A stretch of 64,000 nucleotides of DNA, taken from assembly GCA_963763775.1 (NCBI GenBank), contig CAVXPZ010000001.1:768001-832000 (forward strand). Direction: 5' to 3'. Below, piece after piece: positions 11,541 to 25,535 of the stretch (position 1 is its first letter; the number at the start of each line of letters is the position of its first letter). The notes under the pieces were generated by a model. It was not told the origin of the DNA. It ran no database searches and saw nothing but the letters and a program-made list of their open reading frames with translations. Position numbers and translations under genes: made by a program. The stretch comes from an uncultured Chloroflexia bacterium. Lineage in GTDB: Bacteria; Chloroflexota; Limnocylindria; Limnocylindrales; CSP1-4.

Positions 11541-12836
11541 ATGGCCGATGTCCCCGACGATGGCGCGACGCGACCCCGCCGCATCCTGAGCGCGACGCTC
11601 GTGAGTGTCGGGAGTGAGCTCACGGTCGGCGACACGCGCGATACCAACTCCGGCGAGCTCGCGAGGGCCTTGACGGCGCGCGGCGTGGCGATCCGCCGGA
11701 TCACGGCCTTGCCCGACCACCTTGGCGACGTCCGCGACGCGTTCGTCGACGGGCTGGCCCGCGCGGACCTCGTGATCTCGACCGGCGGGCTCGGCCCGAC
11801 GCCCGACGACCTGACGCGTGAGGCCATCGCCGCGGCGTGCGGCGAGACGCCGACCGTCGACCCTTCCCTGGAAGCCTGGCTCCGGGACATCTGGCGGCGG
11901 CGCGACCTGCCGTTCCCGGAGATCAACCTCAAGCAGGCATGGCGCATCCCCGCCGCGGAGGCGCTCCCGAACCCGAACGGGACCGCTCCCGGGTGGTTCG
12001 TCCGGCGCCCGGACGGCCGGGTGATCGTCGCACTGCCCGGTCCGCCGCGGGAGATGCGGCCGATGTGGTCCGAGCACGTGCTGCCGCGCCTCGAGGCGAT
12101 GGGGCTGGGGGCCGAGACCGCCACACGCACGTACCGGCTGTCGGGGATCGGCGAGTCCCAGGTCGCGGATCTCCTCGGCGACGCCTTCCTCCGCCGCACG
12201 AACCCCGTCGTCGCGACGTATGCCCGGGCGGAGGCCGTCGACGTGCGGATCTCGGCAGTGCGCGACGAGTCGGCCGCGGCCGAAGACCTGGTCGAGGCGG
12301 CTGCGACGACCGTGCTCGACGCCCTCGGCTCGTTCGTCTGGGCGACCGGCGAGACGACATGGTCGCAGGCGATCGGCGCGCGGCTGGAGTCGCTCGGCTG
12401 GACGCTCTCGATCGTGGAGATCGGCACGGCCGGGCAGGTGGCCGCCCTGCTCGGGGACGTGCCGTGGCTCCGCTTCGACGAGACGCTCGCCGCGGGTTCG
12501 CCGGCCGCGACCGTGCACGGGGCCACGGGCGCGACGAGCCTCGACGATCCGGAGAGCGAAGCCGCCCTCGAGGCCTTCGCACGCCGCGGCCGTGACCTGG
12601 GAGGGAGCGAGGTCGGCGTCGCCGTCCGGGCGATGCCCCGGACCGGCGACACGGTGGTCTCGGTGGCCGTGGTGACCCCGACCTCGACCAGCCATCAGCG
12701 GAGGCTCGTCTTCCTGGACGGCGCCAACGGTCGGACGCGTTCCGCGCTGACGACCGCGATGATCCTGTTCGAGGTGCTCGGGACCGGCGGGATCCCGGCC
12801 GACGGCCCGTCCGAGGGCCCGACAGGGGCGACCTAG
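11541..12836 (+). CDS. cinA: CinA-family protein (molybdopterin-binding-like N-domain, degenerate PncC C-domain)
   Basis: VSVGSELTVGDTRDTNS, STGGLGPTPDDLTRE, PNPNGTAPG, LPGPPREM, GIGESQV. Confidence 0.88.
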   Translation: MADVPDDGATRPRRILSATLVSVGSELTVGDTRDTNSGELARALTARGVAIRRITALPDHLGDVRDAFVDGLARADLVISTGGLGPTPDDLTREAIAAACGETPTVDPSLEAWLRDIWRRRDLPFPEINLKQAWRIPAAEALPNPNGTAPGWFVRRPDGRVIVALPGPPREMRPMWSEHVLPRLEAMGLGAETATRTYRLSGIGESQVADLLGDAFLRRTNPVVATYARAEAVDVRISAVRDESAAAEDLVEAAATTVLDALGSFVWATGETTWSQAIGARLESLGWTLSIVEIGTAGQVAALLGDVPWLRFDETLAAGSPAATVHGATGATSLDDPESEAALEAFARRGRDLGGSEVGVAVRAMPRTGDTVVSVAVVTPTSTSHQRRLVFLDGANGRTRSALTTAMILFEVLGTGGIPADGPSEGPTGAT

Positions 12837-13528
12837 CGGCGGGAGGCCCGGGCGAGGCCGTCGATGTCGGTGACCACGATCGCGTCGCGCTCGAGGCGCA
12901 GGTAGCCGTCGCTGGTGAACTGGCCGAGCAGCTTGTTCACGCTCTGCCGCGTGCTGCCCACCATCGCGGCGAGGTCGCCTTGCGTGAGCGAGGTGCGAAG
13001 GCGGATGGCGCCGTCGTCGAGGGCCGTCCCGCCGTCGGCCATGCGGACGAGGCAGGCCGCGAGGCGCCCGGTGATGTCGAGGAAGTGCAGCTCCTCGACC
13101 TGCGTCGTCAGCCGCCGGAGCTCGCCGGCCAATGAGGCGAGCAGCGCGTCGCGGACGACCGGCTCCTCGGCGATGAGCTCACGGAACCTCGCCCGGGGGA
13201 GGACGACCGCCTCCACGACCCCGAGGGCGGTCGCCGTGGCGGAGCGGGGCGCGCCGTCGAGGAGCGCGAGCTCGCCGAAGACGTCCCCTTGCTGGAGACG
13301 CACGAGGATGGCCTCGTCGCCGCTCTCGGACGGGAGGGAGATCTTCACCTCGCCGGCCACGATGATGAAGAGCGCGTCCCCCGGGTCGCCAAGGTGGAAG
13401 ATCACCTCGCCACGCCGGAAGCGGCGGCTCCGCATGCCGGCCGCGACGCGTTCGAGGGCGTCCGCGCCGAGTCCCGAGAAGAACGGGATCGACGCGAGGG
13501 ATTCGGCGAGACGATGGTCGACGGACAT
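12833..13528 (-). CDS. Crp/Fnr-family transcriptional regulator (cNMP-binding)
   Basis: GEVIFHLGDPGD, phosphate-binding cassette FGELALLDGAPRSATA, HTH LTQGDLAAMVGSTRQSVNKLL. Confidence 0.93.
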   Translation of the reverse strand: MSVDHRLAESLASIPFFSGLGADALERVAAGMRSRRFRRGEVIFHLGDPGDALFIIVAGEVKISLPSESGDEAILVRLQQGDVFGELALLDGAPRSATATALGVVEAVVLPRARFRELIAEEPVVRDALLASLAGELRRLTTQVEELHFLDITGRLAACLVRMADGGTALDDGAIRLRTSLTQGDLAAMVGSTRQSVNKLLGQFTSDGYLRLERDAIVVTDIDGLARASRR

Positions 13529-13642
13529 CGCCGCCCATCCTAGCCGCTCGACCCGGCTCGAACGATGCTGTCCGCGGGCCGACAGGCTCCACGTCGGTCC
13601 GGCGTCGCCAGGCACCCATCGTCCCGAGTAGGATGGGCGGCC

Positions 13643-14497
13643 ATGACCCCTCCGACGTCCGCCGGACGCCTGCGACTGACCGTGCTCGGCTGCAGCACGG
13701 CGGCCCCGCACGAGGACTGGCCGGCCGCCGGGTTCCTCGTGGACTGGGGCGGGACGACCATCATGCTCGACGCGGGACAAGGGACCATCCGACGCCTCCA
13801 GCGGCTGATGGACCCCACGCACCTCGACGCCCTGGTGGTCGGACACATGCACGCCGACCACTACCTCGATGTCGTCGGCCTGCGCTATCTCTTCCCCTGG
13901 GGCGAGGCCGCGCCTCGAGCCTTGCCCGTCCACCTGCCACCGGGTGGACGAACCCGACTCGATGCGCTCGCCACGGCCATCTCGGAGCGTGAGCGGTTCT
14001 TCGATGCCGCCTTCGACGCCGTCGAGTACGACCCGGAGCGCCCGCTCGCCATCGGGCCGCTCACGATCCGGTTCGTCCGCGGTCGCCACTACGTGCCCGC
14101 CTGGGGGGTCGTCATCGAGGCACCCGACGGCAGCCGGCTCGCGTACACCGGCGATACCGGCCCGAGCGACTCGGTGGTCGAGGCGATGCGTGATGCGGAT
14201 CTGCTGCTCATCGAGGCCGCCCTCCGCCTGCCGAGCCACGACGATCCCGAGCGCGGCCACCTCACCGCCGAGGAGGCGATCGACATGGCGACGCGCTCCG
14301 GCGCCCGGTCCGCCCTGCTCGTGCACTACGCCCCGGCTCGACGGCACGAGTTCGAGACCCTGTGCCAGGCGGCGGGCCCGTGGATCAAGCCGGCCGTCGC
14401 CGGCCTCACGGTCACGGTCAGCCGGCCGGCGATCGACGACCGGGCGGCCTACGAGGCGCGGACCCCCTCGAGCGCGGCCGCAGCCCGCGAGCGGTAG
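13643..14497 (+). CDS. MBL-fold metallohydrolase, RNase Z-like / Rv1339-CpdA-like putative cyclic-nucleotide phosphodiesterase
   Basis: LTVLGCS, LDAGQG, HMHADH, YTGDTG, GHLTAEEA, LLVH. Confidence 0.82.
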   Translation: MTPPTSAGRLRLTVLGCSTAAPHEDWPAAGFLVDWGGTTIMLDAGQGTIRRLQRLMDPTHLDALVVGHMHADHYLDVVGLRYLFPWGEAAPRALPVHLPPGGRTRLDALATAISERERFFDAAFDAVEYDPERPLAIGPLTIRFVRGRHYVPAWGVVIEAPDGSRLAYTGDTGPSDSVVEAMRDADLLLIEAALRLPSHDDPERGHLTAEEAIDMATRSGARSALLVHYAPARRHEFETLCQAAGPWIKPAVAGLTVTVSRPAIDDRAAYEARTPSSAAAARER

Positions 14498-16545
14498 TCC
14501 GCCGCCGTCACCGGGTCCCCGGACAGCTCCGCGGCCGTGCGCCAGAACGCGGCCGCCTCCGACGCGGCCCCCATGGCCAGCGCGGCCGCGCCTGCCTCGT
14601 CCAGCAGGGGGATCGCCCGCGCCGAGTCCCCGGATGCCGCGCGGTGGACCGCGATGAGGGTGATCTTGGTCGGGTCCCCGGATGCCTCGAGCTGGTCCGC
14701 GAGCGCGGCATGGAGCTGCCGTCGGCGCGACGTGAGCAGGCCCGCGTAGGCCGCATCGTGGATGAGCGGGTGCCCGAACCGCCAGCCGTCGTCGTCCCCG
14801 GGCAGGATCAACCCGGCGTCCACGAGGCGGTCGATCGTCCCGGCGTCGATCGCGGCGCCCATGAGCCCTTCGACCGACGTCTCGCTGAAGGCCATGCCGA
14901 CGACCGACGCGACGCCGATGGTCGTACGGGCGTCGGGCGGCAGCGCGTCGATCCGGGCGCCGAGCACGGCCCGGAGCGTCAACGGCACCGTGGTGATGGG
15001 GACGTCCGCGAGCGTCACGCGGCCGTCGTGCCAGGCGAGCGTGCCGTCGTCCAGATACGCGAGGACGGTTTCCGTGACGAACAACGGATTGCCCGCCGTG
15101 CGCTCGTGGATCCGGCGGGCGTCGTCGGCATCGACCGCGGCGCGCGCGACCTCCGTCGCGAGTTGCGCGGTCTCGGGCATCGCCAGCCCGCCGAGGCTGA
15201 TCCGTTCGACCCACGGCAGGTCGGCCCAGTACGGGGCGGGGCCGGGGCGCATCCCCGCGAGCACGACCAGTGGTCGCCGCGCGGTCCGGTCGACGAGGAT
15301 CTCGACGAGCCCGACACTCGAGGGATCCATCCAGTGCAGGTCGTCGATGACCACGACCCGTGGTCCGGCCGTCTCCGCGATCCGGTCGATGTAGCGGCCG
15401 GCGACCTCGATGAGGGCCACGATCACCGCGCTCGGGTCCGCCGGGGTGTGGAACGCCTCCGCCTCCCAGCCGCTGAAGGCGGCATCGCGGGCGATCGCCG
15501 CCACCGCACCGCCGAATCGACGTGCATCCTCTTCGCTGGTGTCGGGCGTGAACAGCATCTGTCGGGCGAAGCTGCCCGAGTCCATCTCGTGCTCGTCGGC
15601 CACGATCTGGGCGAACAAGCGGGCGAACCGGTACGGCTCCGACTGGCCGTACGACGTGTTCTCGGTCCACGTCCAGCCGAACCCGCGCTGGCGCACGTCG
15701 GCCTCGACCTCGGCGAGCAGTCGGGTCTTCCCGATCCCGGCTTCGCCCACCACCAGGATGACCCCGCCCGTCCCGCTGTCGGCGAGGCGGTCGAGCATCG
15801 CCCCGATCCGGTCGAGTTCCGCGGCCCGGCCGATGAGGCGTCCCGGCGACCGCGGTCGAGGCAGGCCGTACCCGCCGAGGCCCAGCTCGCCCCCGAGGGC
15901 GTGGATCGCGACCGCCTCGGACTGGCCGCGCAGGACGACGGAGCCGCGGTCGGCGACCACGAGTCGTCCACGGGCCGCCGACAGCGTCGCCGCGTCGAGG
16001 AGGATCTCGCCGGGCCGCGCCAGCGACTGGATGCGCGCGGCCGTCGTGATCGCCCCGCCGGTCAACGCGAGGTCGTCAGGCGTCGATGTCGACCGCCGGG
16101 TGGTGACGACCTCGCCGGTCGCGATGCCGATCCGGACCTCGAGGGGCTCGCCGTCGTCGTGGATGTCCGCCAGGGCCGAGCGGATCCCGAGCCCGGCGAG
16201 GGCGGCGCGGATGGCATCGTCGTCGTGGGCCTGCGGCCACCCGAACACGGCGAAGACCGCGTCGCCGATGAACTTCTCGCGGGTGCCCCCGAACCGCTCG
16301 ATGACGTCGGCCATCGCGCTGAGGGCGACTCGGACGCGCTGCCGGACATCCTCCGGGTCGTGCTCGGCCACCATCCGCACATACCCGACGAGGTCGGCGA
16401 ACAGCGCGGTGACGACCCGCCGGTCGCCGGCCTCGCCCGGGTCAGCCGCGGCACGCCCCGTCCCCGCGGCCGGGACCGGGGATCCGCAGCGGTCGCAGAA
16501 TCGCGCACCGTTCGCGGCATCGGCGCCGCAGGCGTCGCATCGCAT
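14449..16545 (-). CDS. Class III adenylate/guanylate cyclase with N-terminal double zinc ribbon and AAA-ATPase domain
   Basis: CDACG..FCDRCG, VTALFADLVGY, EKFIGDAVFAVFG, RIGIATGEV, TAARIQ, Walker A GEAGIGKT, VIDDLHWMD, GNPLF, FGHPLIHDAAY. Confidence 0.92.
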   Translation of the reverse strand: MRCDACGADAANGARFCDRCGSPVPAAGTGRAAADPGEAGDRRVVTALFADLVGYVRMVAEHDPEDVRQRVRVALSAMADVIERFGGTREKFIGDAVFAVFGWPQAHDDDAIRAALAGLGIRSALADIHDDGEPLEVRIGIATGEVVTTRRSTSTPDDLALTGGAITTAARIQSLARPGEILLDAATLSAARGRLVVADRGSVVLRGQSEAVAIHALGGELGLGGYGLPRPRSPGRLIGRAAELDRIGAMLDRLADSGTGGVILVVGEAGIGKTRLLAEVEADVRQRGFGWTWTENTSYGQSEPYRFARLFAQIVADEHEMDSGSFARQMLFTPDTSEEDARRFGGAVAAIARDAAFSGWEAEAFHTPADPSAVIVALIEVAGRYIDRIAETAGPRVVVIDDLHWMDPSSVGLVEILVDRTARRPLVVLAGMRPGPAPYWADLPWVERISLGGLAMPETAQLATEVARAAVDADDARRIHERTAGNPLFVTETVLAYLDDGTLAWHDGRVTLADVPITTVPLTLRAVLGARIDALPPDARTTIGVASVVGMAFSETSVEGLMGAAIDAGTIDRLVDAGLILPGDDDGWRFGHPLIHDAAYAGLLTSRRRQLHAALADQLEASGDPTKITLIAVHRAASGDSARAIPLLDEAGAAALAMGAASEAAAFWRTAAELSGDPVTAADYRSRAAAALEGVRAS

Positions 16546-16646: not shown

Positions 16647-17726
16647 TCAGGAAACGGTGAGGATCGGGCGGTCGGCCGCCTGGGCGGCGCGGACGCTCAT
16701 GCGGGCCGCGACCGCACCGGCGACCGCGGTCAGGGCGCGCGCGGCCGGACCGGGCTCGCGCTGCGCGACCGCCGGGACGCCGACGTCGCCACCCTGGCGG
16801 ACCGTGATGTCGAGCGGGACCCCGCCCAGGAACTCGATCCCGTGCTCCGCGGCGAACCGCTCGCCGCCACCGCGGCCGAAGATCTCGGTCAGCTCGCCGC
16901 AGTGCGGGCACGCGAACGCCGTCATGTTCTCCACGAGCCCGAGGACCGGGACGCTCATCCGCTTGAACATCGCGAGCGCCTTGGCGACGTCCGAGAGGGC
17001 GACCTCCTGGGGCGTCGTCACCAGCACCGCTCCCGAGATCGGCACAGCCTGCGCGAGCGTGAGCTGCGCGTCGGAGGTGCCGGGCGGGAGGTCGATGACC
17101 AGGTAGTCGAGCTCGCCCCAGTCGACATCGCGGAGGAACTGCTGGATGGCCCCGCCGATGAGCGGACCGCGCCACACGATCGGCTGGCCCTCCGGGACGA
17201 AGAACTGGATCGAGATCGTCTTGACGCCGTGCCGCTCGAGCGGGGCGATCTTGTTCGCCTCGGTCGCCTTCGGCTGCCCGTCGATGCCCATCATCATCGG
17301 GATGTTCGGACCCGTGATGTCCGCATCGAGGAGGCCGACCGAGGCGCCCGCCTGCGCGAGGGCGACCGCGAGGTTGACGCTGACGGTGCTCTTCCCGACG
17401 CCACCCTTGCCCGAGGCCACGGCCAGGACGTTCTTGACCCCCGGCAGCAGCTGCTCCGCCTGGCGCGGCTGCGCCCGCCGGACCATCGCGCCCCACGTGA
17501 TGTCGATCCGTTCCGCGCCGATCCCGCCGAGGACGGCCCGCGCGTTGCCCTCGATCTCATCCTTGAGCGGGCAGGCGGGCGTCGTCAGCTCGATGGTGAA
17601 GGCGATGGCGGTGCCGTCGATGGCCACGTCCTTGACCATGTCGAGGGTGACGATGTCGCGTCCGAGCTCGGGCTCCTGGACGGCGCGGAGCGCCTCGATG
17701 ACGTCGTGCTCGGTGAGGGTGGGCAT
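16647..17726 (-). CDS. mrp: Mrp/NBP35 (ApbC) Fe-S cluster carrier ATPase
   Basis: N-terminal DUF59 (LTTPACP), SGKGGVGKST, DADITGP, WRGP, DLPPGTSD, VENM..CPHC. Confidence 0.95.
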   Translation of the reverse strand: MPTLTEHDVIEALRAVQEPELGRDIVTLDMVKDVAIDGTAIAFTIELTTPACPLKDEIEGNARAVLGGIGAERIDITWGAMVRRAQPRQAEQLLPGVKNVLAVASGKGGVGKSTVSVNLAVALAQAGASVGLLDADITGPNIPMMMGIDGQPKATEANKIAPLERHGVKTISIQFFVPEGQPIVWRGPLIGGAIQQFLRDVDWGELDYLVIDLPPGTSDAQLTLAQAVPISGAVLVTTPQEVALSDVAKALAMFKRMSVPVLGLVENMTAFACPHCGELTEIFGRGGGERFAAEHGIEFLGGVPLDITVRQGGDVGVPAVAQREPGPAARALTAVAGAVAARMSVRAAQAADRPILTVS

Positions 17727-17891
17727 CGGTGGTGGGTCCCTTCGCGGCGTGGTCGTGGGCCGTTCTGACGGTCGAAGCGTCGATATCCTACCGCGCCGCC
17801 CGGAACCGGCCCGCGAAGGCCCGCTGTCGGCCGCCCGACGGCGGCCGACCAGGCCGACGCCGACCCACGAACTTCGTCGCACCCGACCGCT

Positions 17892-17966
17892 GATTCGTAC
17901 GAATCTCGCAGAACGTGCGCGGCGACGCGCGTTCGATTGACACGCTGCCACGCGCAACCCTATCCT
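17892..17966 (+). promoter_or_regulatory. Sigma70 promoter of the polyamine ABC operon with upstream palindrome
   Basis: TTGACA (17937-17942)-N18-TATCCT (17961-17966); perfect palindrome GATTCGTACGAATC at 17892-17905. Confidence 0.65.
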
Positions 17967-18002
17967 CGCGCCCATCCGACCCCCCTAGGAGTGCCTGCGA
18001 CC

Positions 18003-20423
18003 GTGCCCACCGTGGACGTCCGGCTCGTCGACGTGGTCAAGAAGTACGGCGAGAACTATGCCGTCGACCACATCAACCTCGAAGTCCAGACGGGGGAGTT
18101 CTTCAGCCTCCTCGGACCGTCCGGCTGCGGCAAGACCACCACCCTGCGGATGATCGGCGGGTTCGAGGCGCCCACCTCCGGCCTGATCGAGCTCAAGGGC
18201 GAGGACGTCACGTGGCTGCCGCCGTACAAGCGCCACGTCAACACCGTCTTCCAGAACTACGCGCTGTTCCCGCACCTGACCGTGTACGAGAACGTGGCCT
18301 TCGGCCTTCGGCGCTCCAAGGTGCCCGATGCCGACGTCAAGTCGCGCGTCACCGAGATGCTCAAGCTCGTCGAGCTCCCCGGGTTCGAGGGTCGCAAGCC
18401 GACGCAGATCTCCGGTGGGCAGGCGCAGCGCGTCGCCCTGGCGCGGGCGCTCATCAACCGGCCGTCGGTCCTGCTCCTTGACGAACCGCTCGGTGCCCTC
18501 GACCTCAAGCTGCGCAAGCAGATGCAGGTCGAGCTCAAGCGCATCCAGCAGGAAGTGGGGATCACGTTCATCTTCGTGACCCACGACCAGGAAGAAGCGA
18601 TGACGATGTCGGATCGCATCGCGGTGATGAACCACGGCAAGTACGAGCAGCTGGCCGATCCCGCCAGCCTGTACGAGCGGCCGCGGACGCGGTTCGTCGC
18701 CGGGTTCCTGGGCGTGAGCAACCTCCTGCCGACGACGTCCCAGGGCACCGACGGTGCGTATTCGGTGGCGAGCCTGGCGGACGGGTCGACGATCCGCGTC
18801 CCGACCACGCTCACCGAGGGCTTCGACCAGTACGAGATCGGCGTCCGCCCCGAGAAGATCCGCCTGCGCGAGCTGACCGACGCCGTGCCAGACGGCCAGA
18901 ACCAGATGACCGGCACCGTCGTCGACGCCTCGTACCTCGGCGTCTCGACGAGCTACATCGTCGAGACCAAGGCCGGTGGCCGCGTCACGGTCTACGAGCA
19001 GAACGTCGAGCGCGCCACGCGCGCCGAGCTGTGGACCCCGGGCGAGGATGTCCGTCTCACCTGGTCGCCCGACCACACCTTCGCCGTCCAGGCGGGCGGC
19101 ACGCCGCCGCCACAGGACCCGGGGATCCCCCTCGTCGCGGGTGACGACGGCGGCGTCCCGGTGCCGCCACCCGCCCCCGGCGTCTCGCGGCGCAAGTTCC
19201 TCATCGGCGGCGCCATCGCGGTCGCGGCCGTCGGGCTCGGCGCCTTCCTCGCCTCCACGTCGGGCGGCGGCGCGCCCGCGGCATCCGAGAGTGCGGCCGC
19301 CGGCGCCTCCTCGGCGCCGCCGGAACCGTCGGTCCCGGCCTCGGCCGGCGCCTCGGCCATCGCGTCCGAGGTCCCGCCCCCGAACCCGACCGGCCCGCTC
19401 CAGTGGGCGAACTGGATCGGCTATATCGACATCGACGAGGCCACCGGCACACACCCGACGATCGAGAAGTTCACCAAGGAGACGGGGATCCAGGTCAACT
19501 ACGTCGAGTCGATCGACGGCAACGAGGAGTTCTTCACCAGCAACCTCAAGGACCCGCTCCAGGCGGGGCTGCCGACGGCCTGGGACCTCATCGTCATGAC
19601 CGACTGGATGATCGACCGGTTGGTGCGGCTCGGCTGGCTCGAGGCGCTCGACCGCGACGCCATGCCGAACTTCGTCGCGAACCTCCTGCCGCTCTACGTC
19701 GGCCGCTCGTTCGACCCGGACACGCATTTCGCGGCGCCGTGGCAGTCCGGGATGACCGGGCTGGGGTTCAACCTCAAGAAGACCGGGCCGCAGGACTCGC
19801 TCGAAGTGCTCTTCTCCGACCAGTTCGCAAAGAAGCTCACGTATCTCACGGAGATGCGCGACACGGTCGGCCTGTCGGCCCTCCGCCTCGGCGTCGACCC
19901 CGCGACGATCACCGCCGACCAGTTCGCGGCGGCTCTCGCCGAGGTCGACAAGGCCGTCAAGGCCGGGTACGTCCGACAGGTCGAGGGCAACTCCTACGTC
20001 AACACCATGGCGTCGGGTGATGCGGTCATGGCCATGGCCTGGTCTGGCGACGTCCTGACCCTGCTCGTCCCGGACCAGACGAAGGACCAGGACTTCCAAT
20101 GGGTGCTCGCCAAGGAAGGCGGGATGCTCTGGACCGACAACATGGCCGTGCCGAAGGGCTCGCCGAACAAGGTCCTCGCCCAGAAGTGGATCGACTTCTA
20201 CTACGACCCGATCAATGCGGCGACGATCGAGGCGTACGTCAACTACGTGTGCCCGGTCAAGGGCGCCCGCGACGTGATGCTGACGATCGACCCTGACCTG
20301 GCGAACAACCCGCTCATCTTCCCGCCGCCCGACTACGTCGCCCGGCTCCACCAGTTCCGCTCGACCACGGCCGAGGAAGAGCAGGCGTGGAGCGAGGCGT
20401 TCACGAAGGTCATGGGGCTCTAG
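18003..20423 (+). CDS. potA: Fused spermidine/putrescine ABC transporter ATPase (PotA-like) and substrate-binding protein (PotD-like), with internal Tat-like motif
   Basis: GPSGCGKTT, VFQNYALFPH, ISGGQAQRVALARAL, LLLDEP, TOBE domain; then SRRKFL + hydrophobic helix; then WANWIGYID, PWQSGMTG, AWSGD, EGGMLWTDNMAVP; one uninterrupted ORF. Confidence 0.92.
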   Translation: MPTVDVRLVDVVKKYGENYAVDHINLEVQTGEFFSLLGPSGCGKTTTLRMIGGFEAPTSGLIELKGEDVTWLPPYKRHVNTVFQNYALFPHLTVYENVAFGLRRSKVPDADVKSRVTEMLKLVELPGFEGRKPTQISGGQAQRVALARALINRPSVLLLDEPLGALDLKLRKQMQVELKRIQQEVGITFIFVTHDQEEAMTMSDRIAVMNHGKYEQLADPASLYERPRTRFVAGFLGVSNLLPTTSQGTDGAYSVASLADGSTIRVPTTLTEGFDQYEIGVRPEKIRLRELTDAVPDGQNQMTGTVVDASYLGVSTSYIVETKAGGRVTVYEQNVERATRAELWTPGEDVRLTWSPDHTFAVQAGGTPPPQDPGIPLVAGDDGGVPVPPPAPGVSRRKFLIGGAIAVAAVGLGAFLASTSGGGAPAASESAAAGASSAPPEPSVPASAGASAIASEVPPPNPTGPLQWANWIGYIDIDEATGTHPTIEKFTKETGIQVNYVESIDGNEEFFTSNLKDPLQAGLPTAWDLIVMTDWMIDRLVRLGWLEALDRDAMPNFVANLLPLYVGRSFDPDTHFAAPWQSGMTGLGFNLKKTGPQDSLEVLFSDQFAKKLTYLTEMRDTVGLSALRLGVDPATITADQFAAALAEVDKAVKAGYVRQVEGNSYVNTMASGDAVMAMAWSGDVLTLLVPDQTKDQDFQWVLAKEGGMLWTDNMAVPKGSPNKVLAQKWIDFYYDPINAATIEAYVNYVCPVKGARDVMLTIDPDLANNPLIFPPPDYVARLHQFRSTTAEEEQAWSEAFTKVMGL

Positions 20424-20428
20424 CCACC

Positions 20429-21424
20429 ATGCGACGCGCGGTGAGCTTCCGCACCATCGCCCCATATGCCCTGCTGCTGCCGGGCCTCCTCTGGCTCGCG
20501 ATCTTCTTCGTCTACCCGGCCATCCAGATGTTCCTCGTGTCGCTGTGGACCGGGTCCATCTCGACCGGGTTCACGCAGACGTGGAACTGGGGCATCTACC
20601 CGGAGGCGTTCTCCGAGTACTGGCCCTGGATCGGCCGCTCCATCGTGTATGGCGGCCTCGCCACGATCCTGGCGTTCTCGCTGGGCTTCCCGCTCGCGTA
20701 CGCGATCGCGTTCCGCGGCGGCGCCTACAAGAACCTGCTGCTGTTCATGGTCATCGCGCCGTTCTTCACGAGCTTCCTGCTGCGGACGATCTCCTGGAAG
20801 ATCATCCTCTCGGACGACGGGATCTTCCTCGGACCGCTCAAGACGATCGGGATCATCCCGGCCGACTTCCAGCTGCTCGCGACGCCAGCGGCCGTGATCG
20901 CCGGGATCACGTACAACTTCCTGCCGTTCATGACGCTGCCGCTGTACGTCGCCCTCGAGAAGATCGACCGGCGGCTGCTGGAGGCGGCGTCCGACCTGTA
21001 CGCCGGGCCGTGGCGCCCGCGCGGCACCATCGTCGGGGCCATCGTCGGCGGCGTCCTCGGCGCCATCGTCGGCATCGTCATGGACTACGGCCCGCTCTCG
21101 CTCGGCATCCCCGGGCTGATCCTCGGCATGCTCGTCGGGACGTTCCTGATCAGCGAGGCCTTCATCCGGGTCACGCTCCCGCTCGCCTTGCCTGGCATCT
21201 TCGCCGGCTCGCTGCTGGTGTTCATCCCGGCGGTCGGCGACTACATCAACGCGGAGCTGCTCGGCAACCCGCAGTCCCTGATGATCGGCAACGTCATCCA
21301 GGCGCGGTACCTCAAGGTGACGGACTATCCGACCGCGTCGGCGCTGTCGTTCATCCTCATGGCCGCGATCCTCGTCGGCGTCCTCATCTACACCCGACTC
21401 CTCGGGACCGAGGAGCTGGTCTGA
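20429..21424 (+). CDS. potB: Spermidine/putrescine ABC permease PotB-like, with hydrophobic insertion
   Basis: LGFPLAYAIA, IAPFFTSFLLRTISW, YNFLPFMTLPLY, LLEAASDL, FIPAVGDY, MIGNVI. Confidence 0.9.
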   Translation: MRRAVSFRTIAPYALLLPGLLWLAIFFVYPAIQMFLVSLWTGSISTGFTQTWNWGIYPEAFSEYWPWIGRSIVYGGLATILAFSLGFPLAYAIAFRGGAYKNLLLFMVIAPFFTSFLLRTISWKIILSDDGIFLGPLKTIGIIPADFQLLATPAAVIAGITYNFLPFMTLPLYVALEKIDRRLLEAASDLYAGPWRPRGTIVGAIVGGVLGAIVGIVMDYGPLSLGIPGLILGMLVGTFLISEAFIRVTLPLALPGIFAGSLLVFIPAVGDYINAELLGNPQSLMIGNVIQARYLKVTDYPTASALSFILMAAILVGVLIYTRLLGTEELV

Positions 21425-22314
21425 TGGCTGTCGCGACCGTGGCCTCCACCCGTCCCGCGTCCCTTGGCGACCGGCTCCACCGGGCTGCCGATCGGTGGCT
21501 CCTGCCGATCTACGTCGTGGGCGTGACCCTGTACCTGATCCTGCCGGTCCTCGTGATGATCGCGTTCAGCTTCAACGACCCGGCCGGCCGGTCCAACCTC
21601 CAGTGGCGTGGCTTCTCGCTCGACGCCTGGATGAACCCGCTCGGGCGCCCGGGCCTCCCCGAGGCGGTCCGGAACAGCCTCCTCATCGCCTTCCTGTCGA
21701 CGATCGTCGCGACGATGCTCGGGACGCTGATCGCGCTGGCGCTCGTCCGGTACTCCTTCCGGGGCCGATCCGGGACGAACCTGCTGATCTTCCTCCCGAT
21801 GTCGACGCCGGAGATCGTGCTCGGAGCCTCGCTCCTGACGACGTTCGTGGCGTCGGTCAAGCTGCCGTTCATCCCCCAGGGGATCGTCTATCCGCTCAGC
21901 ATCACCACGATCGTCATCGCCCACATCATGTTCTGCATCAGCTTCGTGGTCGTCACCGTGAAGGCCCGGTTGCAGGGGTTCCCGAGGCACCTCGAGGAGG
22001 CGGCCATGGACCTCGGCGCCAACGAATGGACGACCTTCTGGAAGGTGACGTTCCCGCTCATCCTCCCGGGCATCGCGGCCGCGGGGCTGCTCGCGTTCAG
22101 CCTGTCGATCGACGACTACGTGGTGACGAGCTTCACGGCCGGCCAGACCCAGACCTTCCCGCTCTTCATCTACGGTTCCCAGCTGCGCGGCATCCCCGTC
22201 CAGGTGAATGTCATCGGCACCATCATCTTCGTGGTGGCGGTCATGTTCGTCCTCATGACGACGCTCTGGCAGCGTCGGGTGGCCGCGAGGGAGTACAACA
22301 GCGGCATCGTCTGA
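21424..22314 (+). CDS. potC: Spermidine/putrescine ABC permease PotC-like
   Basis: YLILPVLVMIAFSFN, PEIVLG, LEEAAMDLGA, AFSLSIDDYVVTSF, PVQVNVIGT. Confidence 0.92.
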   Translation: MAVATVASTRPASLGDRLHRAADRWLLPIYVVGVTLYLILPVLVMIAFSFNDPAGRSNLQWRGFSLDAWMNPLGRPGLPEAVRNSLLIAFLSTIVATMLGTLIALALVRYSFRGRSGTNLLIFLPMSTPEIVLGASLLTTFVASVKLPFIPQGIVYPLSITTIVIAHIMFCISFVVVTVKARLQGFPRHLEEAAMDLGANEWTTFWKVTFPLILPGIAAAGLLAFSLSIDDYVVTSFTAGQTQTFPLFIYGSQLRGIPVQVNVIGTIIFVVAVMFVLMTTLWQRRVAAREYNSGIV

Positions 22315-22342: not shown

Positions 22343-23671
22343 ATGGTCGACACCGCCGACGCACCCGCTCGCGCCGCCGGGGCTCCCCTCCCCGACCACG
22401 CCGTGGTCCCGCCCGTCTGGGGCCGCATCACCAACCTCGACGTCGATCGCGGCGAGGGATCCTGGCTGATCACCCGCGACGGGGATCGCTACCTCGACTA
22501 TTCGTCGGGGATCGGGGTCACGAACACGGGCCACGCCCACCCACGGGTGGCGGCCGCCGTCGCGGCACAGGCGACGAAGCTGCTCCACGGGCAGCAGAAC
22601 ATCCTCTACCACGAGCCCGGGTTGCGGCTCTACGACCGGTTGCGGCACGTGCTGCCCGGCGGGCCGTGGCAGGCGTTCCTGTCGAACTCGGGCGCGGAGG
22701 CGGTCGAGGCGTCGGTGAAGCTGGCCCGCGCCGCCACGGGCCGCCCGGCGATCATGGCGTTCCGTTACGGCTATCACGGCCGGACCGCCCAGACGATGGC
22801 CCTGACGACCGCGAAGGACGTCTACCGGGCGGCTTTCGAGCCGCTGCCGGGGTCCGTGTACCACACGCCCTACCCGTACTGCTACCGGGCCGCGGGCGGT
22901 CCCCATCCGATCGACGCGTGTACCTGCGATTGGGAGGAGCAGCTCGACCTGACGTTCCACCAGTTCATCTACCCGGACCGCGTGGCGGCGATCATCATCG
23001 AGCCCGTCCTGGGCGAAGGCGGGTATCTCGTCCCGCCGACCGGGTTCCTGCCGCGGCTCCGCGAGATCACCCGCGAGCACGGGATCCTGCTGATCGCCGA
23101 CGAGGTCCAGACGGGCTTCGGCCGGACCGGCGAGATGTTCGCCGTCCAGCATTGGGGCGTCGAGCCCGACATCCTCGTGATGGCCAAGGGCATCGCGTCG
23201 GGCCTCCCGCTGTCGGGCATCCTCGCGCGCCAGGACCTCATGGCCGCCTGGAAACCCGGGACGCACGGCGGCACGTACGGCGGCAATGTGGTGTCATGCG
23301 CGGCCGCGAACGCGACCCTCGACGTCATCGAGGACGAGGGACTCGTGGCCAATGCGCGGGAGCGTGGCCGCCAGTTCCTCGACGGTCTCAGGACCCTGGC
23401 CGGCAAGTACGGGTCGATCGGCGACGTGCGCGGCCTCGGGCTGATGGTCGCGATCGAGCTGGTCAAGCCGGGGATCGGCGACGGCCGCACGCCGGACCCG
23501 GACCTCACGAAACGGATCCAGGCCGAGGCCCTCGCCCGCAAGCTGATCGTGCTGACCGCCGGCACCTACGTGAACGTGGTCCGGATCATCCCGCCCCTGG
23601 TCACGACGGCCGCCGAGGTCGACCAGGCGCTCGGCATCCTCGACGAGGCGCTGGCCGCCGCCGGGGCGTGA
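22343..23671 (+). CDS. Class III PLP-dependent aminotransferase (4-aminobutyrate/diamine aminotransferase-like)
   Basis: NSGAEAVE, GYHGRT, IIEPVLGEGGY, LIADEVQTGFGRTG, AKGIASGLPL, GGTYGGN. Confidence 0.92.
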   Translation: MVDTADAPARAAGAPLPDHAVVPPVWGRITNLDVDRGEGSWLITRDGDRYLDYSSGIGVTNTGHAHPRVAAAVAAQATKLLHGQQNILYHEPGLRLYDRLRHVLPGGPWQAFLSNSGAEAVEASVKLARAATGRPAIMAFRYGYHGRTAQTMALTTAKDVYRAAFEPLPGSVYHTPYPYCYRAAGGPHPIDACTCDWEEQLDLTFHQFIYPDRVAAIIIEPVLGEGGYLVPPTGFLPRLREITREHGILLIADEVQTGFGRTGEMFAVQHWGVEPDILVMAKGIASGLPLSGILARQDLMAAWKPGTHGGTYGGNVVSCAAANATLDVIEDEGLVANARERGRQFLDGLRTLAGKYGSIGDVRGLGLMVAIELVKPGIGDGRTPDPDLTKRIQAEALARKLIVLTAGTYVNVVRIIPPLVTTAAEVDQALGILDEALAAAGA

Positions 23672-24267
23672 CCGTCGTCGTCCTTCCTGCGACGCCCGAG
23701 CGGTGGGACGACGTCGCGGCCGTGTTCGCCGGCGACGGGCCCAAGGGCTGCTGGTGCCACGTCTGGCGCACGCTCAGCCCCATCCCGCCAGCGCAGGGTG
23801 ACGGCTCCGGCGAGCGGAACCTGCGGACCCAGGTCGAGACGGACCCGACGCCGCCCGGTCTGCTCGCCTACGACGATGGCGTCCCGTCAGGCTGGATCCG
23901 GCTCGGACCGCGTGACGGCATCGGGCGGCTCGTCCGGTCGAGGACGATCCCGCGGATCGACGACGTGCCCGTCTGGTCGATCGTGTGCTTCAAGGTCCTG
24001 CCCGGCCATCGCCGCAAGGGCGTCGCGCGGGCGCTGCTGGCTGGGGCCGTGGACTTCGCGAGCGGTTCGGGGGCCCCGGCGCTCGAGGCCTACCCCATCG
24101 ACGCGGGGGGCCGGCGCCTCGACGTGTCGTTCTCGTTCGTCGGCTTCACCTCGATGTTCGAGGCGGCCGGGTTCCGAAGGGTGGCCGAGACGAACGCCCA
24201 TAGCGCCGGGCGGCCGCGGATCCTCATGCGCCTCGACCTGACCGAGGCGGCCGTCACGGCCGGCTAG
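23668..24267 (+). CDS. GNAT-family N-acetyltransferase (CWC type)
   Basis: GCWCHVWR, VWSIVCFKV..HRRKGVARALL, LEAYP, SMFEAAGF; GTGA overlap with the aminotransferase. Confidence 0.85.
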   Translation: MTVVVLPATPERWDDVAAVFAGDGPKGCWCHVWRTLSPIPPAQGDGSGERNLRTQVETDPTPPGLLAYDDGVPSGWIRLGPRDGIGRLVRSRTIPRIDDVPVWSIVCFKVLPGHRRKGVARALLAGAVDFASGSGAPALEAYPIDAGGRRLDVSFSFVGFTSMFEAAGFRRVAETNAHSAGRPRILMRLDLTEAAVTAG

Positions 24268-25535
24268 ACCAGCCCGACCTCGCGAGCCTCGCGGGTCAAG
24301 GCGTCGCGGTGGTCCGGGTGCGCGATCCCGATGAGGGAGGCGGCCCGCTCGCGCAGGGACCGGCCGAAGAGCTCGGCGACGCCATACTCGGTGACGATCG
24401 TCCGGGCATGGGCACGGGTGGTCACGACGCCGGCGCCCTCCTTGAGCGTGGCCACGATCCGGGACATCGATCCGCCGGCGGCGGTCGACGGCAGGGCGAT
24501 GATCGCGCGGCCCTCCGAAGCCAGCGCGGCGCCACGGATGAAGTCCATCTGGCCGCCGACACCGCTGTACACATGCGATCCGATGGAGTCGGCGACGACC
24601 TGGCCGGTCAGGTCGACCTCGATGGCGGAGTTGATCGCCGTCATCCGGCTGAACGAGCGGATGACGTGCGTGTCGTTCGTGAAATCGACCGAGCGCATCT
24701 CGATCATCGGGTTGTCGTGGACGAACCGGTACAGCCGGTCGCTGCCCATCATGAACGCCGTCACGATCTTCCCGCGGTTGCGCTCCTTGCGCGCTCCCGT
24801 GATGACGCCCGCCTCCACGAGGTCGACCACGCTGTCGGTGAACATCTCGGTGTGGACACCGAGGTCGCGGTGGTCGCGAAGCGCCAGGGCCGTCGCGGCC
24901 GGGATGGCCCCGATCCCCAGCTGGATCGTGGCGCCGTCCGGCACGAGCTCGGCGACGTACTGGCCGATCCGGCGCTCGATGTCGCCGATCGGGCCGACCG
25001 GCCGGGCGTACGGGGGGATGTCGACTTCGATCGCGAGGTCGATGTCGTCGACGTGGATGAAGCTCTCGCCGAGCGTGCGCGGGAGCGCGGGGTTGAGCTG
25101 GGCGATGACGGTCGTCGCCGCGCGGATCGCCGCATGCATCGCCTCCACCGAGACGTTCAGCGAGCAGAAGCCGTGGGCGTCCGGCGGGGTCACGTTCACG
25201 AGGACGGCATCGAGCGGGACCGCCCCGGATTCGAACAGCCGCGGCACGTCCGAGAGGAAGACCGGGACATAGTCCGCACGGCCCTCGCGGATCGCCGCCC
25301 GGGCGTTCGGCCCCACGAACAGGGCCCGGTGCCGGAAGTGCCCGGCCATCTCCGGCGCGAGGTGCGGGCCCGGACCTTCCGTGTGCAGGTGGACCATCCC
25401 CACGTCGCGCAACTCTGGCGCGCGCGCCACGAGCGCGTCGAGCAGGACGCTCGGCGCCGCGGCCGCGCATTGGACATAGACCTGGTCGCCGGAACGGATC
25501 CCGGCGACGGCCTCGTCAGGGGCGACGATTCGCAT
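24264..25535 (-). CDS. Acetyl-CoA hydrolase/4-hydroxybutyrate CoA-transferase family protein
   Basis: DGATIQLGIGAIP, LGVHTEM, INSAIEVDLTGQV, SGVGGQMDF, VTEYGVA. Confidence 0.93.
   Translation of the reverse strand: MRIVAPDEAVAGIRSGDQVYVQCAAAAPSVLLDALVARAPELRDVGMVHLHTEGPGPHLAPEMAGHFRHRALFVGPNARAAIREGRADYVPVFLSDVPRLFESGAVPLDAVLVNVTPPDAHGFCSLNVSVEAMHAAIRAATTVIAQLNPALPRTLGESFIHVDDIDLAIEVDIPPYARPVGPIGDIERRIGQYVAELVPDGATIQLGIGAIPAATALALRDHRDLGVHTEMFTDSVVDLVEAGVITGARKERNRGKIVTAFMMGSDRLYRFVHDNPMIEMRSVDFTNDTHVIRSFSRMTAINSAIEVDLTGQVVADSIGSHVYSGVGGQMDFIRGAALASEGRAIIALPSTAAGGSMSRIVATLKEGAGVVTTRAHARTIVTEYGVAELFGRSLRERAASLIGIAHPDHRDALTREAREVGLV

Follow-up and report, generated by a model that had tools for sequence, protein, structure and literature searches.

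A putative bitopic subunit carrying both the ATPase and the receptor of a PotABCD-type importer in Limnocylindrales

How might an ABC (ATP-binding cassette) importer be organised if its cytoplasmic ATPase and its external substrate receptor were encoded by one uninterrupted reading frame? The question is raised by a potA-potD fusion gene at nt. 18003..20423 (+) of a 64,000-nucleotide stretch of DNA (hereafter the window) from an uncultured Chloroflexia bacterium of the order Limnocylindrales (GenBank assembly GCA_963763775.1, contig CAVXPZ010000001.1, positions 768,001 to 832,000). The gene probably encodes a bitopic N-in/C-out subunit of a PotABCD-type polyamine importer. A bitopic design, with a cytoplasmic ATPase, one membrane helix and an external binding domain, had been proposed in an earlier reading made from the letters of the window and its reading frames (the sequence-only reading), and the conserved order of the parts supports it. 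The analysis shows how the chain is built, that it is conserved, and a series leading from split to fused genes; we infer the topology, the stoichiometry and polyamine as the substrate.

Architecture and distribution of the fused chain

The fusion gene comprises 806 codons from a GTG start, with an AGGAG 11 nt upstream, to a TAG stop codon, with no internal stop. The GC content of third codon positions (GC3) is 0.90–1.00 in a single frame along the whole gene and 0.94 in each of the two junction windows, in agreement with the high in-frame GC3 noted earlier at the junction. Each part named in the sequence-only reading (PotA, TOBE, the SRRKFL motif, a helix lacking Cys, two linkers, and PotD) was found where that reading had placed it, all on the forward strand.

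The N-terminal half begins with the ABC nucleotide-binding domain (nt. 18003..18722, residues 1–240), which contains a Walker A (GPSGCGKT), a signature (SGGQ) and a Walker B (LLLDEP) motif and matches Pfam ABC_tran over residues 22–163 (121 bits); the residues of all three motifs are invariant across 89 fused homologues. This half belongs to the NCBIfam potA subfamily TIGR01187 (391 bits, above the cut-off of 355.6) and scores 401.6 bits against the E. coli PotA equivalog NF006987, under the cut-off of 482, and is thus PotA-like rather than an equivalog of the E. coli protein. The TOBE_2 regulatory domain (nt. 18837..19085, residues 279–361; Pfam, 67 bits) is followed by a Pro/Ala/Gly-rich linker, predicted to be cytoplasmic (nt. 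19086..19184, residues 362–394), and the twin-arginine motif S395-R-R-K-F-L400 (nt. 19185..19202). Overlapping the motif is the predicted single transmembrane anchor (nt. 19197..19253, residues 399–417), which has no lipobox Cys. Its sequence, FLIGGAIAVAAVGLGAFLA, is the sole apolar 19-mer of the fusion protein, contains no Cys at all, and has a mean Kyte-Doolittle hydropathy (KD) of 2.29. A Rieske TAT-signal model gave a weak, sub-threshold match at the motif (E 0.004, 17 bits vs. a cut-off of 24).

A second linker, rich in Gly, Ala, Ser, Pro and Thr and predicted to be extracellular (nt. 19254..19397, residues 418–465), leads to the PotD/PotF-type substrate-binding domain (nt. 19398..20420, residues 466–806). 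This domain matches Pfam SBP_bac_8 over residues 487–772 (72 bits vs. a cut-off of 27) and, among solved structures, the PotF/PotD entries 7xjm (E 2.6e-31), 1a99 (1.6e-26) and 1pot (3.9e-26) in the PDB; its equivalog scores of 102 and 96 bits lie far under the PotD and PotF cut-offs of 636 and 582. The chain has one apolar segment, and PotB and PotC are separate genes, which is not the composition of the OpuA/GlnPQ-type receptor-permease chains. Across 89 homologues, the span from W354 to R396 is 31–65 residues and that from L416 to W471 is 31–68 residues; as both linkers are at least 31 residues long in 89/89, the first is long enough to reach the membrane from TOBE and the second to extend from there up to the top of PotBC.

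The sequence-only reading had called for a search for this architecture in other genomes, and it was recovered there. The homologue set consisted of the best 120 matches in a collection of 5.8 billion proteins, 91 of which are the same chain (740–900 residues, with the twin arginines (RR), an apolar helix and no Cys), falling in identity bands of ~74–80%, 59–61% and 41–44%. A representative library clustered at 50% identity added two more full-length fused proteins (P0123 and P0124) among its best 150. Within the genus of the window, nine of 25 sampled genomes carry the uninterrupted fusion (including the window's own genome, G000, and the partial G024), so the possibility that all close relatives are split does not hold; the remaining sampled genomes of the genus have separate potA and potD genes.

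The fusion was absent from all 16 genomes sampled from the sister family. An even draw of 201 genomes from the order gave 11 full-length, stop-free matches (10 in the genus and one in another genus), with G024 again a partial match and a further 17 genomes having potA and potD in the same frame with one stop between them. Among GTDB species representatives, none of the 45 classifiable loci is fused; another 33 loci have no potD downstream, and two have no PotD match. The potA-potD fusion architecture is rare. In all eight that we inspected of the 33 loci with no downstream potD (L054, L056, L070, L074, L076, L096, L098 and L102), potD was found 5′ of potA, an order seen in Streptomyces, Kitasatospora, Kineosporia, Nanopelagicales and some Acidimicrobiia representatives. 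With this gene order, a fusion running from ATPase to receptor is impossible by simple loss of a stop codon.

From split genes to an internal anchor

The split loci show what the fused chain may have been made from. Read base by base, potA in these loci closes with its own stop codon, and potD begins in 11 of the 11 scanned with an ATG or GTG that lies 33–36 nt before S/T-RR and has a GGAGG-type Shine-Dalgarno (SD) sequence. Among nine fused loci, none offers an in-frame start with an SD in the 90 nt 5′ of the RR, and two of the nine have no in-frame start whatever in that stretch, which bears out the earlier description of a junction with neither stop nor SD. The sequence-only reading had also named independent initiation at an internal GTG (nt. 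19161) as a possible source of all the binding protein; this codon has no SD motif and is not conserved, and that objection fails to refute the fused chain.

The signal itself differs too. In the split form, it is a Tat-type (twin-arginine translocation) lipoprotein signal, e.g., T-R-R-R-F-L-Q-G-S-A-L-A-G-A-A-A-F-L-A-A-C, with ~16 residues to the Cys. A lipobox was recognised by eye in 55 of 56 split PotDs (50 already detected with a regular expression and five by inspection), the protein of L044 having none. By comparison, a Cys within 30 residues after the RR occurs in 0/91 fused homologues, and the loss of the lipobox Cys noted for the window's helix thus holds for the whole set; the fused signal is not of the lipoprotein (class II) type. 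The polar Gln of the split signal is replaced by Ile or Val in the fused form, and after RR-x the apolar residues continue without interruption for a median of 23 (range 18–34, n = 91) vs. 2 (range 1–16, n = 50) in the split form. Hydropathy (KD, 19-residue window) is 2.21 in fused and 1.41 in split signals.

Conservation in the fused proteins is concentrated on the motif. R396 and R397 are invariant in the 89 aligned, S or G precedes them in 81/89, and RR-x is followed by F/L/V and then L/I/V, with G402-G403 nearly fixed. Position 398 is variable (A37, K25, R15, N6, T5, V1) and the flanking linker is unconserved. Given that the stop, the start and the Cys are gone, the apolar run is longer and the RR is kept, a cleaved lipoprotein signal would now serve as an uncleaved signal anchor, and the anchor goes back to the h-region of PotD's signal peptide. 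In the series we propose, the chain would have arisen from an adjacent potA-potD pair through loss of the potA stop codon and of the potD ribosome-binding site and start, after which the Tat-type lipoprotein signal peptide of PotD would have been reshaped by loss of the Cys, replacement of the Gln and lengthening of the apolar stretch.

Seven of the 120 homologues (P0049, P0062, P0065, P0066, P0068, P0070 and P0112) are continuous PotA-PotD open reading frames (ORFs) with an internal Met, the RR and a lipobox (…LAACG). They could be intermediates, with a fused frame and a cleavable lipoprotein signal, or merges produced by gene calling or sequencing.

The two halves of the chain give different trees. 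In a quick IQ-TREE analysis of the PotA core, with 360 columns and Limnocylindria rows of which 25 are fused and 29 split, the Limnocylindrales-type fused genes form a single clade (SH-aLRT 99), with one change between the split and fused states. The PotD-domain tree of the same rows needs seven changes, at least five of them forced by starred branches, and the approximately unbiased (AU) test rejects trees in which the fused PotDs are held together (p 0.00017, log-likelihood (lnL) difference 796). Fused PotDs fall in three PotD groups, each of which also exists as split lipoprotein genes in the genus. PotB tracks the PotD type, with 81–92% identity within the window's type vs. 55–64% for the others. 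An mrp-like gene upstream is shared, being 78–90% identical in fused and 49–72% in split loci over the parts available, and the junction peptides of the three types are closer to one another than to the split signals. Compared with nt. 16647–22314 of the window, loci L002–L025 are mosaics: the mrp/NUBPL-type ATPase gene and potA are conserved, and potD and potB are of at least three divergent types that cross the divide between fused and split. Such a mosaic of a conserved potA with divergent potD/potB types suggests cassette exchange within the genus. We infer that a sub-lineage of the genus underwent one fusion and that the potD-potB(-potC) cassettes lying downstream of the anchor were exchanged afterwards; several independent fusions in this sub-lineage are the less parsimonious alternative.

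A second fused clade (48 rows, ~42% identity) comes from sources named Iamia, Desertimonas, Microthrixaceae and Acidimicrobiia. PotA trees place it apart (two changes); the AU test does not reject one clade of all fused PotA (p 0.125, lnL difference 16.8), so a single origin followed by transfer between phyla remains compatible with the data. The fusion would thus have arisen either once or twice, with the trees in favour of two origins. Locus L036, on a contig that bears the title Candidatus Sulfotelmatobacter (Acidobacteriota), falls within the Limnocylindria clades of both PotA and PotD and may be a mis-binned contig or a transfer.

Topology, export route and neighbouring genes

The permease genes follow directly on the fusion gene. 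The potB gene (nt. 20429..21424, +, 331 a.a) begins 5 nt past the fusion gene's stop codon; its best NCBIfam match is PotB (E 1.6e-50, under the equivalog cut-off), and its BPD_transp_1 match is 25.6 bits vs. the Pfam cut-off of 26.4. The potC gene (nt. 21424..22314, +, 296 a.a) overlaps potB by 1 nt, with PotC as the best NCBIfam match (E 1.3e-58, likewise under the equivalog cut-off) and a BPD_transp_1 match of 64 bits. The genome, which is 87% complete, yielded no second PotD homologue. As the fused copy is the sole one and lies directly 5′ of potB and potC, its PotD half must be the receptor of this transporter.

In the importer we propose, the PotA ATPase and TOBE domains would stay in the cytoplasm, with the ATPase dimer lying under PotBC. 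From each TOBE domain, the first linker, of at least 31 residues, would go back to the membrane, which the single helix would cross N-in/C-out with the RR on its inner side, and the flexible second linker, also of at least 31 residues, would let the PotD/PotF-type receptor reach the top of PotBC. The helix would thereby substitute for the lipid anchor of the split relatives. The PotA2BC stoichiometry is established and implies two receptors per ATPase dimer; two chains dimerising on PotB/PotC would hence supply two covalently tethered receptors per transporter.

The ligand contacts of PotF are W37, S38, S85, E185, W244, D247 and D278 (PMC3223731). When the binding domain is aligned to PotF, W680-S-G-D683 stands opposite W-A-G-D and D712 opposite an Asp; the residue after W471 is Ile, where PotF has Ser. 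By our own mapping, we take W680, D683 and D712 to be W244, D247 and D278 of PotF, and the substrate would likely be of the polyamine type.

Export by Tat on the internal signal, as in FecR, is plausible and has a slightly better than even chance on the features of the sequence. Those that mark FecR-type (class V) substrates are present: an RR consensus precedes an apolar stretch between folded domains, and the genome encodes TatC (175 bits) and two TatA/B proteins, each above its cut-off. In this case, the whole chain would fold in the cytoplasm, Tat would thread the PotD half out, the internal RR signal would stay as the anchor, and the ATPase would then dock on PotBC.

The same bitopic protein could also arise if the helix were inserted co-translationally as a type II signal anchor by the signal recognition particle (SRP), SecYEG and YidC, with the twin arginines a merely inherited positive-inside flank, and we regard both this route and this view of the arginines as serious contenders, somewhat short of even. 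Sec commonly handles bitopic proteins that have a large cytoplasmic domain at the N-terminus, and after the fusion the apolar stretch grew to the median of 23 residues and KD of 2.21 given above. Several points weigh against the Tat route. On a crude, position-independent, Hessa-type hydrophobicity sum, the anchor scores −0.49, within the range of the PotB/PotC helices (−2.88 to +1.2); being as hydrophobic as these, it makes SRP/Sec insertion a live rival. A Lys or Arg within 10 residues past the helix is found in just 42/91 fused proteins and is absent from the window's protein, and PotD has no cofactor that would demand folding in the cytoplasm. The handling of internal helices by Tat has been tied to low hydrophobicity and C-terminal positive charges (Tooke et al. 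2017, partial text of PMC5449189).

Against insertion by Sec, the RR pair is kept in 89/89 with S/G before it and F/L/V and L/I/V after it, while the next basic position and the linker are free to vary, although high-GC genomes prefer Arg to Lys, so that this argument loses some of its weight. The split ancestors carry canonical Tat lipoprotein signals and the genome has tatC and two tatA/B genes, and FecR shows that Tat can cope with such a topology (partial texts of PMC13673990 and PMC12036975). On the boldest reading, which has not quite an even chance, this would be the first ABC importer with motor and receptor as one membrane-crossing chain and also a natural FecR-type Tat substrate with a dimerising ATPase of ~390 residues as its cis-side passenger. 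As part of the same reading, a Limnocylindrales lineage would have fixed the module of ATPase, linker and anchor a single time, after which it was combined with at least three PotD/PotB cassettes, maybe with a second origin in Acidimicrobiia.

A further alternative keeps the export but not the chain: the fusion would be only a biosynthetic precursor, cut after export by signal peptidase I or another protease into PotA-anchor and PotD. Small residues past the helix (A417-S-T-S-G-G-G) and linkers that are both predicted to be disordered, and so accessible to proteases, would allow such a cut, as would the RR and lipobox kept in the seven continuous frames described above, which signal peptidase II would cleave if used. 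We nevertheless consider it unlikely. In 81/89, position −3 relative to A417 holds F, V, L or I, which under the −3/−1 rule are unfavourable for cleavage by signal peptidase I; the lipoprotein route would require a Cys, which occurs in 0/91. Moreover, the cell, as a member of the Chloroflexota, probably has a single membrane and would lose a released receptor, whereas the split relatives all anchor theirs by a lipid.

Very improbable is a cytoplasmic PotD-like domain acting as a ligand-sensing regulator as in NrtC/CmpC: NrtC does show that chains of an ATPase and a binding-protein-like domain exist without export (partial text of PMC10945777), but here an apolar helix of 19–23 residues after the RR parts the two domains in 91/91, the 87%-complete genome yielded no other PotD homologue to act as receptor, the domain descends from exported lipoprotein PotDs, and a TOBE regulatory domain is already present.

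Least credible of all is an artefact, i.e., an assembly or frame error or an ORF call merging two genes, with PotD made from an internal start. In its favour, long frames do stay open by chance in high-GC DNA, an in-frame GTG is present at nt. 19161 and some shorter homologues (e.g., P0052, P0054 and P0060) end in frame-shift-like tails just past the helix. Against it, the frame is held in 91/120 homologues down to ~41% identity in spite of linkers of unequal length and sequence, the fusion recurs in nine genomes of the genus, GC3 is continuous along the window's gene, the Logan contigs show no indels where they cover it, and the conserved, SD-preceded start present at all 11 split loci is gone from the fused ones. 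The sequence-only reading had asked for the junction to be confirmed in reads, which succeeded in part. Logan contigs from four public runs cover nt. 18895–19192 and 19238–19415 as near-identical sequence without indels, but leave the 45 bases of nt. 19193–19237 unbridged. Two apparent joints in run X3 were set aside as belonging to other organisms, as the contig pieces are 90–95% alike. Six of the shorter homologues (P0052, P0054, P0060, P0061, P0063 and P0090; 486–584 a.a, with no binding-protein domain listed) turn Arg/Pro-rich and frame-shift-like at or just past the helix. In metagenome assemblies, the low-complexity, GC-rich DNA around this point seems to attract indel errors, unless the decay is real.

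A model of the full fused chain, built with AlphaFold 2 (AF2) from 89 homologues, assigns high predicted local distance difference test (pLDDT) scores to the TOBE and PotD domains. Most 10-residue blocks of residues 241–330 in the TOBE region have a mean above 90 (63–94 towards residue 361), and every 10-residue block of the binding domain (residues 461–806) but one has a mean of at least 90. Together with the unbridged 45 bases, the rest of the model counts against the proposed chain: pLDDT is below 50 over residues 371–441 and 443–457, where the linkers and the helix lie, some stretches of the ATPase domain are oddly poor, and just a short helix (residues 396–408) is predicted around the anchor. 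With linkers of such low pLDDT and so short a helix, the model is uninformative on topology.

Around the transporter genes, some further features were noted. PotB contains an insertion of ~45–55 residues with two apolar segments, a putative extra membrane hairpin (nt. 21011–21163, PotB residues ~195–245), directly after the EAA coupling motif (EAAxDLYAGPWRP). The insertion is found in the window's PotB type and one other PotD/PotB type, at both fused and split loci, and is absent from the third type (fused L006; split L031, L038, L042 and L043) and from three Actinomycetota loci; it is thus independent of the fusion state. Downstream, 28 nt past potC, lies a class III aminotransferase gene (nt. 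22343–23671, +), for which GABA/acetylornithine-type transaminases are the best matches, under their cut-offs, followed by an acetyl-CoA hydrolase/transferase gene (nt. 24264–25535, −). Together, these two genes would fit the catabolism of imported polyamines via 4-aminobutyrate. A 945-a.a ORF (nt. 12833–15670, −) has its cyclic nucleotide monophosphate (cNMP)-binding domain and Crp-type helix-turn-helix (HTH) confined to the last ~200 residues (749–941) and is either a protein with a long N-terminal extension or an over-extended high-GC ORF.

Comparison with known systems

An importer with its ATPase and receptor as one membrane-crossing chain was not described in the full-text literature searched, in which subscription journals were not covered. 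The sequence-only reading had known of no characterised chain that joins a nucleotide-binding domain, a membrane helix and a binding protein; this stands as far as importers are concerned, but it had missed the precedents of FecR, TagGH and NrtC. Precedents exist for each part (FecR, TagGH, NrtC and OpuA), and none was found for the whole. Database sources name the fused proteins just "polyamine ABC transporter ATP-binding protein", and under this naming, genomes with the fused gene would seem to have no receptor for polyamines. The ways of tethering a receptor described to date are lipid anchors, N-terminal helices and permease fusion. Tethering to the ATPase would fix the ratio at one receptor per motor subunit and two per transporter, would let a single chain take part in both the capture of substrate outside and the hydrolysis of ATP inside, and would offer a natural construct for studies of receptor docking, stoichiometry and trans-membrane coupling. 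The family is also a large one in which a cleaved Tat lipoprotein signal appears to have become an internal signal anchor, with split and fused forms within one genus. It makes testable the choice between Tat and Sec for an internal signal and the size of the cis-side domain that Tat tolerates. As the split-to-fused series is unusually clear within one genus, it should interest specialists in both ABC transporters and Tat.

Of the systems that likewise tether their receptors, OpuA/GlnPQ and the B. subtilis ArtRQP hold two or more per transporter by a helix and a flexible linker (partial texts of PMC11065425 and PMC11466899), and a mycoplasma PotC-PotD model listed in NCBIfam (NF043073) is a receptor-permease fusion. 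In OpuA-type transporters, the receptor sits on the membrane subunit, whereas in the window's system it is joined to the ATPase in the cytoplasm, which obliges the fused chain to make one membrane crossing of its own. The linkers of the window's family are much longer, with at least 31 residues compared to 11 in OpuA.

For the ATPase side, the B. subtilis TagGH system has an ABC ATPase that continues into a single membrane helix and, behind a linker of ~30 residues, a folded domain outside the cell. TagGH is, however, a teichoic-acid exporter whose outer domain is SH3b-like, whereas the window's protein would serve an importer and carry a substrate receptor; no twin-arginine motif is mentioned for TagGH in the partial text of PMC11466899, on which this comparison draws. 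In the cyanobacterial NrtC, an ABC ATPase is joined to a cytoplasmic domain ~30% identical to its own binding protein, NrtA. In NrtC/CmpC, this domain is cytoplasmic and regulatory, with a hinge helix and a separate NrtA, and no inter-domain membrane helix is mentioned (partial text of PMC10945777); the window's protein has a membrane helix between its domains, and no separate receptor was found.

For the export signal, FecR is a "class V" Tat substrate, in which an internal, uncleaved signal behind a folded N-domain directs export of a folded C-domain (partial text of PMC13673990), with its RR at residues 79–80 and tatABC-dependent export (partial text of PMC12036975). FecR is a sigma regulator with an N-domain of ~80 residues, whereas the cis-side part of the window's protein is an ATPase of ~390 residues that would dimerise and dock on a permease, and its dependence on Tat is putative. 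The actinobacterial Rieske proteins, which are dual Sec/Tat ("class IV") substrates, likewise have an RR right before the last helix and an exported C-domain, but with prior Sec-inserted helices, a cofactor, a weakly hydrophobic last helix and following positive charges (partial text of PMC5449189). In the window's protein, the helix is the first and is more hydrophobic, positive charges are lacking behind it, and the exported domain has no cofactor.

Closest in function are the E. coli PotABCD and PotFGHI systems, type I ABC importers with the same four functions and families. The E. coli PotD and PotF are separate, soluble periplasmic proteins, whereas the receptor here is the C-terminal half of the ATPase chain, and the window's proteins lie under the E. 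coli equivalog cut-offs for PotA (PRK09452), PotB, PotC, PotD and PotF. Closest in descent are the split PotDs of its relatives, class II Tat lipoproteins that share RR-x-F-L and the binding domain and represent direct ancestry; compared to them, the fused form has lost the Cys, replaced the Gln, lengthened the apolar run, and no longer has a free N-terminus.

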